IMG/VR virus record: IMGVR_UViG_2609459845_000009
From: a virus
Taxonomy: Duplodnaviria; Heunggongvirae; Uroviricota; Caudoviricetes
DNA: 17,583 nucleotides
Direction: 5' to 3' (one strand)
A model generated the notes under the pieces. That model saw nothing but the letters and a program-made list of their open reading frames with translations, had not been told where the DNA came from and did no database searches. The translations under genes and the position numbers were made by a program. Positions 1 through 7,230 of this stretch are shown piece after piece (the stretch's first letter is position 1; every line of letters starts with the position of its first letter).

Positions 1-939
1 TACGAATCGGTTGGCTGCAGCGATGCTGATCGGTTTGTTTATGTCTTCTCCAGGGAAAAGAACATCATTGTACGTTGTCATGGCCTTTTCGAGAAAAGGC
101 TTAATTTGTTCGAAGATTGGACGGCGGATAACATTACCCATCTTGCTATGCTCTTTCGGTACGGTCCATACGTTGTCCAGCAGGTCAAATTCTGTCTTTG
201 TTGCCAGCCTAAGCTCTGAGAGCCTCGCCCCCCACAGCATAAGCATCTGATGAAGGAGCTTATTTGACGTAGACGCACGGCTTCTTTCAATAGCAAGCCA
301 AATCTTAGCCAGTTCGTGATACGACAGTACCCGATCCCCTACCTCAGCGCGGGAGCCGAAGTCCCTTGGTTGGATGCTCATAATTGCGCAACTATCTATC
401 AACTGACGCCGCATGCACCAACTTATTGCTGATCTTAGTTGACTTAGCACCTGCCTTGCTCGGCGTGGATTATCTCTTTCTTCTTCGGTAAGCAGGTCAA
501 CCCATTGCTTAACCGTGATAGAAGATGCCGGACGATTAGGAAAGGCGTCATGCATGCGCTTCATAACCGTTGATCGGTAAAGTGCCTGGGTCTTTTCTCT
601 GAGAGTTGTAGAGACGTAGTTGTCGAACCAGTAGTCGAGACACTGGGCGACCGTCATGGAGTTCTCCACCTTCTCTTCAAAATAGGTGCGTGGATCCGTT
701 CCTGAGAAATAGAGCTTTCGCAAGTCAGCAGTGATCTGTCTGGCATCCTTCAAAGACAGGGATGGGTATCGACCAAGCCCAAGTCGATTAGGCTTGCCAT
801 GCCAGCGATAGCGGTACTGGAACTGGATGACCCCCTTCGGTGAAATTCGTACGCTGAGGCCATCGGCATCAGCCACTTCTTGTGGGCCCGAATATGGTTT
901 ACCATAAATAGTACGCAGTTTTGTGTCGCTTATAGCCAT
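1..939 (-). CDS. int: Tyrosine integrase, P4-like family, partial (C-terminal catalytic part lies beyond window start)
   Basis: Minus-strand ATG at 939-937; own translation gives MAISDTKLRTIYGKPYSGPQEVADADGLSVRISPKGVIQFQYRYRWHGKPNRLGLGRYPSLSLKDAR..., the DG-GL / RYR-GK / LGxYP-SL-AR pattern of the arm-binding N-terminus of P4-type integrases. Frame stays open to position 1 where checked (939-781 and 60-1). Missing from the supplied ORF track because it runs off the edge. Confidence 0.8.
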   Translation of the reverse strand, partial: MAISDTKLRTIYGKPYSGPQEVADADGLSVRISPKGVIQFQYRYRWHGKPNRLGLGRYPSLSLKDARQITADLRKLYFSGTDPRTYFEEKVENSMTVAQCLDYWFDNYVSTTLREKTQALYRSTVMKRMHDAFPNRPASSITVKQWVDLLTEEERDNPRRARQVLSQLRSAISWCMRRQLIDSCAIMSIQPRDFGSRAEVGDRVLSYHELAKIWLAIERSRASTSNKLLHQMLMLWGARLSELRLATKTEFDLLDNVWTVPKEHSKMGNVIRRPIFEQIKPFLEKAMTTYNDVLFPGEDINKPISIAAANRFV

Positions 940-947
940 AAATAATA

Positions 948-1243
948 TTTGGTACGCTCAAAAATAATGGTTTGGTACACATCTGGTACACAATATCACA
1001 TGGACAACAGCGCACAGTAAACAACTATATTTGACGTTCGTAGACATACTCAGGTTAAAAAAGGGTTGTTTTTCGAGTTATAACAGACAGTTAATTAACT
1101 ACAGTGGACAATGCTAGACAATGACAGGCACAGATAAACAACCTACCTTCCTCTTTCACGATTACGCGCAATACCCCTGAGAACCGCCATGAACAAGGGT
1201 TTCATGATTTGTGATTTTAGTTTGGTACGCAATTTGGTACACA
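948..1243. repeat. Five direct copies of TTGGTAC(A/G)C in two clusters (950-992 and 1223-1243) in the region upstream of int
   Basis: Read directly: TTTGGTACGC 948-957, TTTGGTACAC 971-980, CTGGTACACA 983-992, TTTGGTACGC 1221-1230, TTTGGTACAC 1234-1243, all same orientation. Confidence 0.5.
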
Positions 1244-1252
1244 ACACTATTT

Positions 1253-1651
1253 TCACTTCAGCGGGTAGTCATCAAACTCACCAGTCCGCGCGTCATTGAT
1301 GATGTACGTCACCACCCCCTTCACTACGACTCGTTCCTCACAATCGTCGTCAGTTATCCATGTCTTTTTATCAGCGTGGTCCAGTTCTTCCAGGTGCACC
1401 TTTGGCAGCAGCCTGAGACGCAACAGCCGTATCTGGTCATTCAGATGACAAATCACCAGGCTTCCGTCTACCGGAGTCAGCGATGTGTCCATGACCAGCA
1501 GAGCCCCTCTCTTGATTCCTTCCCGCCATGATGTAGCAGCGTAACGGATGAAGAATGTCGCCGCTGGTTTTCGTATCAACTCCTTGTCGAGTGAGATCGC
1601 ATCCTCGTGGTAATCAGCAGCAGGGCTGGGAAACTGTGACATGGCAACCAT
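1253..1651 (-). CDS. UmuD'-like protein (LexA/UmuD S24 peptidase fold; pre-processed HumD-like form)
   Basis: 132-aa ORF; N-terminus MVAMSQFPSPAADY matches the FPSPAADY segment that follows the Cys24-Gly25 cleavage site of E. coli UmuD (recalled). Ser of the GDSM motif is retained (ATSW), but the catalytic Lys position appears to be Arg/Leu. GAGGTGA Shine-Dalgarno upstream. Confidence 0.7.
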   Translation of the reverse strand: MVAMSQFPSPAADYHEDAISLDKELIRKPAATFFIRYAATSWREGIKRGALLVMDTSLTPVDGSLVICHLNDQIRLLRLRLLPKVHLEELDHADKKTWITDDDCEERVVVKGVVTYIINDARTGEFDDYPLK

Positions 1652-1830: not shown

Positions 1831-3117
1831 GTGAAAAATAATTCCGCGCTGTTTGTTGGTTCTTTTTTTGAAAGTGACCAAAGCTCAAAAGTAAACCTGG
1901 CATTATCTTATGATGGAGAACGATTCGAAAAAATAAAGGCTCAATTCCTTTGGGCTATTGGTGGAACTGGAGAAGTTTTAGGGAGAGACCCATCAATTAT
2001 TTATCACAACGGTTGGTGGTTAATAGCCGTATCAGGATATACAGAAAACGTTTATGACGTCGATTGCTGGCGCTCACGTGATTTAACCGTGTGGGAACTG
2101 GTACGAATTAAGCTTGGCGATACGCCAGTCTGTGGGAAACGATTACCGGGTTCAGATCTGGTGACCACTGACGTGTGGGCTCCTGAATGGTTTGTTGATG
2201 ACGAAAATCTGTTCCTGATAGTCAGCCTGCGTTATTACAACGATCAGACTGACAGTAAAGGTGTAAATGTCAAAAGTTTTAAAACATTCTATTCTGTCTG
2301 TTCTGATGTTGAGAGACTGGAGTTTTACGATCCGGTTGCGGTAAATATCGAACCAAAAAACATGATTGATTCTGTTTTTTCCAGAATATTCCAGACGTAT
2401 TACCTGACAATAAAAGATGAAATCACCAAAAAAATTGAGGTGTATTGTTCAAATTGTTTCTCAGGACAGTTCACGAAATTATCAGTAATTCCGTTTACTC
2501 AGGCGGCGGAAGGCCCGGCGCTGGTTTATTTGCCGGACGGCACGATCAGAATCTATGCGGATTTTTTCGACACAAAAAAATGGACTTATTTTGTAGACAC
2601 GAAAGACTTCGTGACGTTCACGCCAGAGCGCCCCGTTTTGTTTGACGGCAGAATTAAGCGCGGGACTATTACAAATGTGCTGAACTGGCGCGATAGTGAA
2701 ACCGCATTGCAGCAACTGTCGGCGCTGTTCTGTGCAAACTCCGGGGATTTACAGCCAGGGAAAATCCACAAGCTCATTGATGTAGCGGGAACGAGCAATA
2801 TCAACGCTACTGATTTAATCTGGTGGCCTGAAACTGGACATTGTTATTTCACCGAGGGGTTATCCGGTAACGTGACAATCAATGCGCTGCCAACTGTTTA
2901 CCCGGACGGGAGTTCGTTTTATCTGATGGTCCGAAGCGCAACGCCGGGAGCTGGTGATCTGACGCTTAAACAGGCTGTCGGCGACCTGTACCACCCGGCT
3001 AATGGCATGGCGATATTTGATGCTGATTTGGTAGTGGCGGCTGGCGGGAACGCCGCATCACGTCTGTTTAGAATGGTGTGCTTTGATGGCCAGTTGTGGG
3101 TTGAGGGGGTTTTCTGA
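1831..3117 (+). CDS. Hypothetical 428-aa protein; N-terminal part resembles a GH43-type five-bladed beta-propeller glycoside hydrolase, C-terminal about 140 aa unassigned
   Basis: Long ORF in an AT-rich island; GTG start (first in-frame ATG is far inside). Motifs in GH43-like order: RDPSIIYHNGWWLIAVSGY, DVWAPEW, AEGPALVYLPDG. No signal peptide. Assignment is motif-level only. Confidence 0.5.
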   Translation: MKNNSALFVGSFFESDQSSKVNLALSYDGERFEKIKAQFLWAIGGTGEVLGRDPSIIYHNGWWLIAVSGYTENVYDVDCWRSRDLTVWELVRIKLGDTPVCGKRLPGSDLVTTDVWAPEWFVDDENLFLIVSLRYYNDQTDSKGVNVKSFKTFYSVCSDVERLEFYDPVAVNIEPKNMIDSVFSRIFQTYYLTIKDEITKKIEVYCSNCFSGQFTKLSVIPFTQAAEGPALVYLPDGTIRIYADFFDTKKWTYFVDTKDFVTFTPERPVLFDGRIKRGTITNVLNWRDSETALQQLSALFCANSGDLQPGKIHKLIDVAGTSNINATDLIWWPETGHCYFTEGLSGNVTINALPTVYPDGSSFYLMVRSATPGAGDLTLKQAVGDLYHPANGMAIFDADLVVAAGGNAASRLFRMVCFDGQLWVEGVF

Positions 3118-3151
3118 TATAATTGTGGCTCAATGAAAATTGGGCCACATA

Positions 3152-4213
3152 ATGAACAATAAAATATTTTCCGTCCAGTATCTTCGTGGAATAGCAGCGC
3201 TACTTGTGGTGCTGTACCATTTTTCTTTTTTTACTCCGCGCTGGTTTGCTAATTTATTTGCAAATGGCATGGTGGGCGTTGATATTTTTTTCATTATCTC
3301 TGGATTTATTATTTATTGGTCAACAATAAATCCTGAGGAATGCAGACCAACGGTATTTATTGTTAAACGATTCGCCAGAATATACCCGCTATTTTTTGTT
3401 GTGTTACTGGTTTCGTTGTTATTGCAACCTGCGCCTGCCACACAATTATCCAGGGGTTTTCTGGTTCTGCACAACGATTACACACTACCCGCTCCGGCGT
3501 TTGGATTTAATCTGCTACCGCCCGCGTGGACATTGACTTATGAAATATCGTTCTACGCTATTTTCTGTATGTGCGCTGCAATAACGACCCGGTATCGAGG
3601 TTCATTGTGTATCGCGCTGCTGATTGCAATCCCGGCAGTGCTACAGGTTGCGTTTAATGGAGGGTTGTCGTTTAACAGCACAGTCACCGCTATCCCTCCT
3701 GCTGACTCGCCGTTTTATGGTCTAATCAGGCTGGCAGGCTCAACGATGTTTTATGAGTTTGCGTTTGGGATTATGTCTGGAATGATATTTGAAAGGTTTA
3801 AATTAATTCTTCCTAACTTAACTGCTATTACTATAGCAATATTCGCATCGGCTTTATTTTTCTATTTTTTCTTCACATTCTCAGACCATACCAGCGGTAT
3901 AGAAGGAATGTTCTTTTTTGCTGCAATATTTTTTGTGGGCGTTTTGATGCTGGATAAATCAAAGGCGGGAGAGATAAAAGCATTATCAATTCTTGGCGAC
4001 CTGACATATAGCATTTATCTCTGTCATTGGCTGGTAATGCAGATGGTACAGAAATTTATTCCGATTGGGGAGTATAAGCACTGGGGCGTCCTTGTCCCCT
4101 GCATGCTTGTTGCTTCTCTGATGATGGCATTCGCAGCTAACCGGATAATTGAAAAACCGTTTATCCGTCTGGCCCGTTCGGCGCTGAAACGCCAGGAGAT
4201 TACGACGCGGTAG
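3152..4213 (+). CDS. Acyltransferase family 3 integral membrane protein (OafA/Oac-like O-acetyltransferase)
   Basis: N-terminus MNNKIFSVQYLRGIAALLVVLYHF is the acyltransferase-3 signature; many hydrophobic segments; 34 nt downstream of the 428-aa gene, same strand. ATG 3152 preferred over the track's TTG at 3140. Confidence 0.8.
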   Translation: MNNKIFSVQYLRGIAALLVVLYHFSFFTPRWFANLFANGMVGVDIFFIISGFIIYWSTINPEECRPTVFIVKRFARIYPLFFVVLLVSLLLQPAPATQLSRGFLVLHNDYTLPAPAFGFNLLPPAWTLTYEISFYAIFCMCAAITTRYRGSLCIALLIAIPAVLQVAFNGGLSFNSTVTAIPPADSPFYGLIRLAGSTMFYEFAFGIMSGMIFERFKLILPNLTAITIAIFASALFFYFFFTFSDHTSGIEGMFFFAAIFFVGVLMLDKSKAGEIKALSILGDLTYSIYLCHWLVMQMVQKFIPIGEYKHWGVLVPCMLVASLMMAFAANRIIEKPFIRLARSALKRQEITTR

Positions 4214-4664
4214 CAGGACGTGGCGGCCATTCAAGGCTGTCACTTAATATCGCTGCTTCATCATTAAACTTCATTTTCTTCAAGGCATCGATATGAGCAA
4301 GCCACTCTTTAAAGGTCGCCTTCTCTTCATCGGTGATGATCTCCAGAATGAGCTTAGAAGGCCAGTGTTCGCTGCTTATATATGCGTTAGCCGCAGAGAT
4401 TAACGCATCTCTCTTTGACTCGGCCTGTGCCAGTTTAAGCGCGAACAGTTCTTCTTTAGTTGGCTCGGGAATTTTTTCCCACGCAGGCATGCCGTCTGGC
4501 CCTGCAACCCTTCGCATGCCGTCTTTAACTGTTGGGTAAAATTCGGCGAAAACACCCATATCAACCGGCACAGCATCACTGTATTCGTCCGTCTTTAACA
4601 GAGAGCTTTCCTTGAAAACAAAAGCGTTGCTTTTGGCACTATATAAAAAATCTGAATCAGACAT
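4200..4664 (-). CDS. tfa: Tail fibre assembly protein (Tfa family)
   Basis: 154 aa; position directly downstream of a tail-fibre C-terminal fragment with TAATG stop/start overlap; C-terminal region (DEEKATFKEWLAHIDALKKM...DSLEWPPRP) resembles Tfa chaperones from memory. Confidence 0.7.
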   Translation of the reverse strand: MSDSDFLYSAKSNAFVFKESSLLKTDEYSDAVPVDMGVFAEFYPTVKDGMRRVAGPDGMPAWEKIPEPTKEELFALKLAQAESKRDALISAANAYISSEHWPSKLILEIITDEEKATFKEWLAHIDALKKMKFNDEAAILSDSLEWPPRPATAS

Positions 4665-5099
4665 TACGCTCTCCCGATAGCAATCCAGTTAAAAACTGTT
4701 GGCTGCGCAGTAAAGTTGTGGTCGGACGAACTCCAGGTTGCAGAACGAACATTAAAGCTCCCTGCGTTAACCTTTTCGGCACCATACACGGTTAAGAGTT
4801 GATAGATACCGCCGGAGGCTGTCCATCCAGAGACATGGCCTTCTACTGCAAATACCTGGTATGAGCTCATCGCCACACCCATATTCACATTATAAAATCC
4901 GTTACTGTCCGTTGTACCTACATCCATCTGGATGATCATATTGCCAGGAAGGCGAATAACCACACCAGACCCGGTTGTTGTATAGGTAAAGGATGACATA
5001 TCCGGAACTTGCCCGGTAGCCGGTATAAATCACACACTCTCCGACATACACATCATCCGGATGGGCAAACAGCTCTTGTTTGTCTGTGAGCTCTGCCAT
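4664..5099 (-). pseudogene. stf: Side tail fibre C-terminal remnant, truncated at 5' end and split by a frameshift (65-aa + 111-aa ORFs)
   Basis: Two overlapping minus-strand ORFs in different frames (5099-4902 and 4999-4664), ending at the tfa start; no upstream tail-fibre body or any other structural genes. Confidence 0.5.
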
Positions 5100-5456: not shown

Positions 5457-5978
5457 TCAGCACGCGATATCGAGAGTCAACTGCAGTTGCTCGCGCCAGT
5501 ACTCAACATTTGCTTCAATAACCGGCTTATCCCATCGCCAGCGAGCCATCTCTCTTGCCCCATTGCTGGCTTTTGATTTCCGGTCATCGCGAATGCGACA
5601 TGCTTGCTCATATTTCTGCTGCTCAGTCAGTTCACCGCGAAGCAGACTATCAATGTGCAGGTCGCACCACACAGCAAAACGAGCATCACACCAACGGGCA
5701 AATGCAACTGAAAGTTTTGGATGTAGCCACGTACCACCACCCCTGTCCTTTCGTGCCTTGCTGGTTTTTACATACCTCGATTGTGAGGGATGTAAAATTT
5801 GAGATTCTTTCCCGGTCAACGCTTCGTCTAAAGCACGAACGTATTCAAGCGTTTCTGCCAAACGCATCCAGTTATCAATGCGTTTTCCAAATCTCTCAGC
5901 AACACCTGTGACGTTGATCCAACCATCAGTGTTGAAACTGACAATTTCACCTTTGTAATTAAGTGGCACGATATTCAT
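5457..5978 (-). CDS. KilA-N domain protein
   Basis: 173 aa; DGWINVTGVAERFGKRIDNWMRL and GTWLHPKLSVAFARWCDARFAVWCD match the KilA-N (APSES-like) domain pattern. Confidence 0.6.
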   Translation of the reverse strand: MNIVPLNYKGEIVSFNTDGWINVTGVAERFGKRIDNWMRLAETLEYVRALDEALTGKESQILHPSQSRYVKTSKARKDRGGGTWLHPKLSVAFARWCDARFAVWCDLHIDSLLRGELTEQQKYEQACRIRDDRKSKASNGAREMARWRWDKPVIEANVEYWREQLQLTLDIAC

Positions 5979-6179: not shown

Positions 6180-6638
6180 TTATTTCAGGCATTGCGTCCT
6201 GATGTATTCCTGCAGGTAGTTAACCTGCGCGGTTATCTTGTCGATTCCACTTCGGAGACGGTAATAATTGAGTTCAGCATCTGCTGTAAGTCTTGGGCTT
6301 TCTCCATCGCCCATGCTGCTGGCTCCGGTCGTTGACTTTGCACAGGTGGCGGCGACTTGCAGGCGCTTACGACCAGCAGAAACATCAGCACGGAGACTTT
6401 CGATAGTCGCGTTAGCATCAGCAAGCTCCTTTGTATATCTGGCATCGAGTTCTGCTACATCACGTTGACGCTTCCGCATGTCAGCGATGGTGGCGTTCGC
6501 CTTCTCCAGTTCACTGGCCTTGTTATCGCGCTGCTCTTTGTAGGCGATTGCGTTATCACGGTAATGATTGACCGCCCACGACAGGCAGACGATGATGCAG
6601 ATAACCAGAGCGGAGATAATCGCGGTTAACCGACTCAT
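6180..6638 (-). CDS. Rz: Spanin inner-membrane subunit Rz (lambda Rz-like)
   Basis: [34 protein letters not shown]... closely resembles lambda Rz; internal ATG at 6638 chosen over the ORF-track start at 6767. Confidence 0.9.
6233..6418 (-). CDS. Rz1: Spanin outer-membrane lipoprotein subunit Rz1, embedded in Rz in the +1 frame
   Basis: Embedded ORF with lipobox LLVVSAC followed by a proline-rich stretch [12 protein letters not shown]; start at 6418 or 6385 is uncertain. Confidence 0.7.
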
Positions 6639-6726
6639 GACATCAACACCCCAACGGCCAGAAACCACGGCCACGCATCGTTGCCATTCAATGCGAGCAA
6701 CGCTGCCATGAAAAAGCAAATCATGC

Positions 6727-7230
6727 TCATTGTTGCCCCCACAAACAGACTTCACGCTCAATCTCACGACGGGTCATCAGCCCTTTCCATTGCTTACCGC
6801 CAGCGTATGTCCAGCGCCGTAGCTGATCACATGCGCCCTTGATATCGCCCTGGTTTATTTTGCGAAGAAGCGTCGATGTTCTGAAATTGCCTGTGCCCAC
6901 GTTATAGACGAACGAGTAAAGAGCGCCGCGCGTTGTTTCCGGTATATCGACTTTGATGTACGGGTTAATTTGTCTGGCGACCGTGGCAAGGTCTTTATTC
7001 AGGAGGGCTTTGCATTCTGCTTCGGTATACGTTTTACCGAGCATGATGTCTTTTCCGGTGTGTCCGTGGCATACAGTCCATACACCAACAATATCTTTGT
7101 ATGGTATGTAGCTGACACCTTCCAGACCATCGTTACCACTCGGTCCAGTGATTAACACAGATGCTATAGCAATAGCCCCGCCACTTATCGCCGCTATTAC
7201 GCTATTTCGTAGTGCCGGTGACATTGCCAT
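6727..7230 (-). CDS. R: SAR endolysin (phage lysozyme, T4-lysozyme/GH24 type; P21 R / RrrD-like)
   Basis: N-terminal Gly/Ala-rich weakly hydrophobic segment [16 protein letters not shown] (signal-anchor-release type) followed by [25 protein letters not shown] catalytic region. Confidence 0.9.

Follow-up and report, generated by a model that had tools for sequence, protein, structure and literature searches.

A gap of 314 bp (940-1252) separates an integrase gene from a UmuD-like gene in a viral DNA stretch of 17,583 bp, here called the window, and five copies of the octamer TGGTACRC lie within it. The question raised by this locus is what these repeats bind. An earlier note on this DNA offered integrase arm-type sites as its first reading, with sites of a recombination directionality factor (RDF) or of an autoregulator as alternatives. 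After comparing the region with phage records, bacterial genomes and related integrases, we favor the first of these readings, and we provide a putative mechanism for how the integrase uses the repeats.

Five repeats inside an attachment site

An exact scan of the window found TGGTACRC five times, at 950-957, 973-980, 984-991, 1223-1230 and 1235-1242, always on the + strand, which bears out the earlier description of two clusters of repeats in one orientation. Cluster A has three copies (spacings of 23 and 11 bp), cluster B has two (12 bp), and the clusters lie 231-273 bp apart. The copies can be extended to about 11 nucleotides, TTGGTACRCAA. By chance, 0.63 matches were expected in the whole window on both strands and, by our own arithmetic, about 0.01 in the 314-bp gap that holds all five. 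Chance clustering of a short motif in AT-rich intergenic DNA is nevertheless a reading to be weighed, since five matches were also reached in one of 200 whole-window shuffles. Against it stand the five copies in 314 bp on a single strand, their register with the recombination core described below, and the recurrence of the same layout in 32 loci from many genera; we regard chance as scarcely credible. Outside the attachment site, the window contains no GTAC pair at a spacing of 11 or 12 bp and no GTAC triplet.

The gap is the intact attP of the "type 2851" lambdoid phages, which integrate into sbcB. The int and attP DNA is about 96-99% identical in phages HK140, mEp234, HK544, Sf101, 2851 and 1717 and in several Stx converters (about 98% over int and attP in HK140, mEp234, HK544 and 2851), and phage records annotate the same DNA as attP "type 2851" or as a 13-bp duplication from prophage insertion. 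The common core, TTTCACGATTACG, is the crossover region at 1154-1166; it is identical to the attB inside sbcB and is annotated as attP or as a duplication in HK544, mEp234 and phage 1717. Both the 13-bp core and the sbcB target have been published for 2851 and Sf101 (PMC4159516). The split form, with the int-side half joined to sbcB, occurs in 587 of 5,426 complete E. coli genomes, and the break falls exactly at 1154-1166. In K-12, the core of attB lies within a perfect inverted repeat of 5 bp (GTTTC-ACGATTAC-GAAAC), which is the form that core-type sites should take and is not related to the arm motif TTGGTACRCAA. A tRNA-type attachment site was ruled out, as the window holds no tRNA gene.

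Placing the repeats at the upstream region of the integrase gene was thus right as far as it went: all five do lie between int and the UmuD-like gene, and what they flank is a complete attP with the core between the clusters. The attP being intact, both arms are already inside the window, and the advice of the earlier note to look for the motif near an outer att site beyond the window falls away. Toward int, cluster A spans distances of 163-204 bp from the core; on the opposite side, to the right, cluster B spans 57-76 bp. Measured from the core center, three int-proximal sites at 172-206 bp form a long arm and two distal sites at 66-78 bp form a short arm.

We numbered the candidate arm-type sites outward from the core on each side. 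Site A1 (984-991, TGGTACAC) has its GTAC at about -50 from the int ATG and its center about 172 bp from the core center. Site A2 (973-980, TGGTACAC) is at about -39, at the 11-bp distance from A1 that is found in every locus compared. Site A3 (950-957) reads TGGTACGC on the + strand and GCGTACCA in the int sense; it lies 11 nucleotides upstream of the int ATG, with a GTAC at about -16 that is invariant in 32 nonredundant relatives. On the side away from int, site B1 (1223-1230, TGGTACGC) begins 57 bp past the core, and an equivalent distal pair occurs in all six independent intact attPs. Site B2 (1235-1242, TGGTACAC) follows 12 bp from B1 and 11 bp before the stop codon of the UmuD-like gene.

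Published and GenBank attPs of 2851, Sf101, HK140, HK544 and mEp234 represent the same element, with about 96-99% DNA identity, the same core and the same sbcB target. These sources define the core only, except that HK140 instead carries a 147-bp 'putative attP'. The Sf101 paper does not use the word 'arm' and is silent on arm sites (PMC4159516).

The UmuD-like gene (1253-1651, minus strand; Peptidase S24, Pfam PF00717, 2.4e-6) bounds the attP, is co-oriented with int, and is called 'UmuD-like protein' by RefSeq in HK140. Next to the attP, two cargo genes (1831-4213, + strand) encode products of 428 and 357 amino acids; the former has weak glycosyl-hydrolase 43/32 and 'tail protein' matches and the latter is an Acyl_transf_3 acyltransferase (4.6e-34). 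In Sf101, SEN34 and AH07, O-antigen-modifying genes usually occupy this place. Head and tail genes are missing from the window. A tail-fiber-assembly gene (4200-4664) and a short ORF (4664-4999), a stretch that includes a tail-fiber remnant, are followed by a fragment of a Rha-like regulator (5457-5978) and directly, on the same strand, by Rz (6180-6767) and an endolysin gene (6727-7230). The right end of the window, with bet, exo and small ORFs, resembles DNA that a relative has about 3.5 kb upstream of its xis-int, as would fit a circular or tandem arrangement with the attP intact. By its appearance, the element either is defective or belongs to such an arrangement.

The integrase as the probable binder

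The window contains the 5′ part of int (1-939, minus strand), 312 of about 392 codons, and the gene runs off the left edge. Its start is at 939, not at 938 as previously given. The product is a tyrosine integrase with an N-terminal arm-DNA-binding domain: Pfam assigned Arm-DNA-bind_3 (PF13356, 6e-18) to residues 4-85, in addition to Phage_integrase. A published survey classes this DUF4102 domain as arm-binding, within the IntSXT subgroup of tyrosine recombinases (PMC8138268). The N-terminal domain matches the arm-binding domain of the HPI integrase (PDB 3JTZ/3RMP, E 1.4e-12) and that of HAI7 (3JU0, E 1.2e-8), and residues 1-77 align with both without internal gaps, through the GVIxFQYRYRW segment. 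The likeness to these genomic-island integrases lies in the N-terminal domain family; HPI and HAI7 are tRNA-targeting islands, unlike the sbcB-targeting window type. A single-sequence AlphaFold model of residues 1-110 had a pLDDT of 51, and only secondary structure was taken from it. The earlier note had left the binding protein open; with an arm-DNA-binding domain encoded next door, Int itself is the best candidate.

We compared the region with those upstream of related integrases, as had been proposed. A scan of species-representative genomes yielded about 30 prophages with integrases 40-74% identical, and further loci came from viral contigs and phage records. The comparison set comprised 32 nonredundant loci with integrases about 50-94% identical to that of the window, from Escherichia, Buttiauxella, Pantoea, Erwinia, Serratia, Tatumella, Rosenbergiella, Yersinia, Xenorhabdus, Proteus, Gilliamella and Orbus. 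The proximal triplet was present in all 32, with GTAC at about -50, -39 and -16 from the int ATG and spacings of 11 and 22-24 bp. GTAC was invariant at all three sites and the spacers were unconserved; no such triplet was found in the 189 kb that these loci contain outside the att region. The distal pair could be followed in six independent lineages with an intact attP, namely, the window type, L070 (Int identity of 73%), SEN34 (61%), L097 (62%, with a different core), phi349 (56%) and Pantoea phage AH07 (55%). It was present in all six, beyond the core at -281 to -302 from the int ATG, with a spacing of exactly 12 bp. Among attPs that are about 96-99% identical, 2 of 40 site positions carried substitutions versus 32 of 273 elsewhere, an underpowered comparison (p = 0.28), and the variation within sites was confined to the degenerate R position.

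Overall, these data point to the five repeats being arm-type binding sites of the type 2851 sbcB-phage attP for its own integrase, which we consider the likely reading. Copies lie on both sides of the core, the motif is unlike the core sites, the integrase has an N-terminal arm domain, the 3 + 2 layout is kept with the Int lineage, and each phage carries matched variants in its two arms (see below). The first-named interpretation of the earlier note thus gains support from the sequence comparisons.

We propose the following putative mechanism. Int would act as a heterobivalent protein, its catalytic and core-binding part working at the 13-bp core (1154-1166) and its N-terminal Arm-DNA-bind_3 domain binding the GTACCA repeats of both arms (three int-proximal ones on the long arm, two distal ones on the short arm). 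By bridging arms and core, Int would fold attP into an intasome that recombines with attB in sbcB, and excision would occur together with an RDF. A 170-bp arm normally needs a bending protein. Between the arms and the core, no convincing IHF consensus was found; the only match with one mismatch overlaps A2 and is no better than expected by chance.

The phage lambda attP resembles the one described here in its heterobivalent integrase, in its five arm-type sites split 2 + 3 over one long and one short arm, and in having RDF sites on one arm only (PMC2951348). The two differ in the family of the arm-binding domain and in the motif, and no IHF consensus was found in the window attP. They also differ in the direction of int. 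Lambda int is transcribed toward attP from pI/pL, and there is no autoregulation through arm sites.

Several loci deserve separate mention. SEN34 (L040) and L097/L102, with Int identities of 61% and 62%, both have GTACA-type sites in near-identical arm layouts and have different cores: SEN34 keeps the sbcB core CGTAATCGTGAAA, and the L097 type uses ...GTAATCTTCGGCAAGG..., within a different host gene, for recombination, which indicates that the target was switched without a change in the arm sites. Direct-repeat clusters of GTACCA in attP-like geometry also occur in five unrelated IMG/VR contigs, L130, L183, L133, L129 and L155; L130 and L183 have 3 + 2 copies about 230 bp apart, and L133 has 2 + 2 copies flanking an apparent tRNA 3′ end. 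GTACCA may have been adopted as an arm site by other integrases in these elements. A scan of viral contigs with TGTACCA-N5-7-GTACCAA for further GTACCA-type distal arms was not useful, as the matches listed were mostly chance and the loci with double hits were unrelated elements. Searching viral contigs with the Tatumella and Pantoea integrases turned up no further GTACCA-type attP in intact form, the matches all being prophage ends truncated at int.

Directionality factor, promoter and sbcB start on the long arm

An alternative is that the GTAC(C)A repeats are sites of an AlpA/HTH_17-like RDF that bends the arms as a phased array and directs excision. Direct repeats that recur at every helical turn are typical of RDF sites (PMC7498355), and the pairs here are 11 and 12 bp apart. 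The earlier note saw no ORF of xis or AlpA size, which holds within the window; in relatives, however, a 63-amino-acid AlpA/HTH_17-like gene of the excisionase type converges on the 3′ end of int, at a place equivalent to just past the left edge of the window. An RDF gene adjoins int in most relatives, and one column of the RDF helix correlates with the motif variant. The position of the repeats argues against this alternative. The GTAC sites are the outermost and lie on both arms, whereas mapped RDF sites, the five TorI sites on attL of KplE1 (PMC2951348, PMC3509656), are confined to a single arm and stand inward of its arm-type sites, toward the core. Moreover, L009, L032, L070 and L074 have no RDF gene next to int, the only place at which its absence was judged, yet they keep the GTAC triplet, and L070 keeps both arms. 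We consider it improbable that the GTAC repeats are RDF sites.

A different repeat, GTYCA, has the RDF-like position and a strict 10-bp phasing. In the 32 loci, it occurs 60 times in the forward and twice in the reverse orientation, against about 9.5 expected, at fixed positions and with exact 10-bp spacing in 12 cases. In the relatives L006-L097, copies are found from -65 to -170 relative to the int ATG, in the stretch that separates the triplet from the core. In the window, a GTCCA element in the int sense is located at 1001-1005, 16 bp upstream of A1; this copy is nearly universal, with the columns G-T-N-C-A conserved in the 32 loci. A second exact GTCCA copy, at 1105-1109, lies about -170 from the int ATG, a position that recurs in relatives (-169). 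Because they are phased and occupy one arm on the core side of the triplet, in parallel to the TorI sites of KplE1, the GTYCA repeats are a candidate RDF (excisionase) site array, with the copy at 1001-1005 alternatively being a promoter element. The RDF reading of the earlier note fits GTYCA better than TGGTACRC. An expanded GTTCA-type repeat was seen in L029 (Klebsiella sp. BIGb0407), where about ten tandem CACTGTTCA units at roughly 2900-2990 stand directly upstream of a degraded integrase of this family.

Because int is transcribed away from the core, the proximal triplet falls on the stretch from -50 to -9 relative to the ATG, where the int promoter and leader are predicted. This promoter (992-1021, minus strand) is predicted to be weak, with a -35 TTTACT (1016-1021), an 18-nucleotide spacer and a -10 GATATT (992-997), matching 8 of 12 positions; A1-A3 lie at and just downstream of the predicted transcription start. 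A promoter-like match at the same position occurs in 11 of the 32 loci, with the -10 ending 3 bp before A1. A second clade of 12 loci has TTGCCA-18-CATAAT, with the -10 inside A2 and matches of up to 10 of 12, so that fixed-position promoter-like matches overlap the sites in 23 of 32 loci. A stricter scan of 800-1800 for sigma-70 promoters and terminators returned neither.

The closest experimentally mapped parallel is the KplE1 (CPS-53)/HK620/Sf6 module, in which the IntS arm-type P′ sites overlap PintS, the TorI sites lie upstream, and intS is repressed by IntS and TorI (PMC2951348). Like the window Int, IntS has an Arm-DNA-bind_3 domain and is transcribed away from the att core. The KplE1 arm-type sites lie between promoter and ATG, two of them 11 bp apart at -45/-34, compared with -50/-39 in the window. 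In K-12, where we matched the sequences to the published KplE1 sites by our own reading of the text of that paper, attL begins this order with phased GTTCG repeats; TTGACA comes next, and the pair GGGTAAAA (-45) and GGATAAAA (-34) follows, so that both order and spacing agree with the window attP. Short repeats phased at about 10 bp thus stand just upstream in both systems, GTTCG in KplE1 and GTYCA in the window type. The differences are considerable as well. IntS is only 21% identical to the window Int, and its target is the argW tRNA gene rather than sbcB. The IntS arm motif is GGGTAAAA with two copies inverted, whereas all five copies of the window type are direct. In addition, torI is at the far end of the KplE1 prophage, whereas the RDF gene of the relatives converges on int, and TorI has no significant pairwise similarity to that RDF (E 1.1). 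By analogy with IntS of KplE1, Int bound at the proximal triplet would also repress its own gene, and autoregulation of int through A1-A3 is plausible. An autoregulatory operator, as the earlier note had allowed, is compatible with the arm-type reading, the overlap with a promoter being a predicted one.

The same arm also contains the 5′ end of a replacement sbcB. It is phage borne, begins with an ATG at 1121 (MTGTDKQPTFLFHDY...; 1121-1166, + strand), is divergent from int, and becomes fused in frame to the body of host sbcB after integration. In a lysogen, RefSeq starts sbcB at the equivalent of 1121, that is, at the phage-derived ATG. The hybrid reads MTDTDKQPTFLFHDYETFG, compared with MMNDGKQQSTFLFHDYETFG in the native form, for which the start of sbcB is MMNDGKQQSTFLFHDYE. 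In lysogens, therefore, about 180 bp that include A1-A3 are common to the upstream sides of int and the rebuilt sbcB, which are transcribed in opposite directions. A palindrome, GTTAATTAAC, lies at 1091-1100, 21-30 nucleotides upstream of the phage-borne ATG. Other sbcB-integrating relatives have a GTTnnTTAAC-like element at the same place, possibly as a component of the promoter or leader from which the rebuilt sbcB is expressed. We speculate, as a rather unlikely extension, that the long arm combines sites for Int and probably RDF with the sole promoter region and 5′ end for lysogen sbcB, in which case occupancy of the arm sites by Int or RDF would tie the expression of exonuclease I, a DNA-repair nuclease of the host, to the state of the prophage.

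A further alternative is that the proximal triplet is mainly a core promoter or the operator of another regulator, from phage or host, for int or for the hybrid sbcB, with the distal pair being unrelated or secondary. The triplet does overlap positionally conserved promoter-like matches and lies within the 180 bp of divergent control DNA that separate int from the start of the phage-borne sbcB. However, a purely transcriptional role leaves unexplained the same-variant pair at a fixed distance across the core in six lineages, as well as the invariance of GTAC while the predicted -10 and -35 hexamers shift between clades. Hexamers based on GTAC are also poor sigma-70 elements. We regard this alternative as quite improbable.

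A LexA box, the perfect palindrome CTGTATGTACATACAG, lies at 1669-1684, 18 nucleotides upstream of the start codon of the UmuD-like gene, and is the sole match in the window. Since the UmuD-like gene is co-oriented with int across attP and no terminator is predicted in between, SOS-induced read-through into int would be conceivable in a circular or tandem form.

Arm-site variants and the specificity of the integrase

Under the arm-type reading, the variation of the motif among relatives becomes informative. The window type has GTACCA at all five sites, and each of the five other intact-attP lineages has GTACA or GTAC-N at all five. The presence of one variant in both arms of each phage points to a single specificity that serves both arms, an argument for a switch in both arms that sets one GTACCA lineage against five GTACA-type lineages. 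On the Int tree, GTACCA has at least three separate origins, and in each of them all three proximal sites carry it. Mixed loci exist: L073 and L076 have the order A-C-A and L017 has C-A-A.

Column 39 of the Int N-terminal domain, the residue before the invariant F40-Q41, follows this variation. GTACA accompanies T, A or S there in 23 of 23 loci, and GTACCA accompanies Q, R or L in 8 of 8; Asn is found with both variants. Within one tight clade, Leu39 integrases (L009, L074 and L032) accompany GTACCA, and Thr39 accompanies GTACA (L070) or the mixed A-C-A order (L073 and L076). In the model of the N-terminal region described above, whose confidence is low (pLDDT 51), residue 39 lies at the start of a predicted strand (38-46). 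A column in the helix of the neighboring RDF (SSR-x-T) correlates with the motif variant much as column 39 does, and the covariation test of Int against RDF is therefore confounded by coinheritance and shared ancestry. The clade able to separate the two has no RDF gene adjacent to int. It is possible, judging from these alignments, that the single Arm-DNA-bind_3 residue at column 39 sets the preference for GTACA or GTACCA.

Arm-type sites as such are well known from textbooks, and both this attP and its core had been annotated and published before; the present finding leaves the accepted working of such systems unchanged. In the searchable literature, a set outside which the original 2851 paper lies, we found no description of the five repeats, no five-site map, and no account of the conservation in Enterobacterales and Orbaceae or of the switching between GTACA and GTACCA.

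Type 2851 modules are those of Stx2c/Stx1a toxin phages and of Sf101, a phage that converts the serotype of Shigella, and about 11% of complete E. coli genomes have such a module in sbcB (the 587 of 5,426 counted above). Knowledge of the full functional attP of about 300 bp and five arm sites, in place of the 13-bp core, helps in drawing prophage boundaries correctly and in predicting the elements still able to excise. The full attP would also be needed if this integrase were used as a tool for site-specific integration. Finally, the family alignment constitutes a natural experiment on how arm-site specificity changes from GTACA to GTACCA, and if the role of column 39 is true, it would be the first handle on the specificity of the Arm-DNA-bind_3 domain family.
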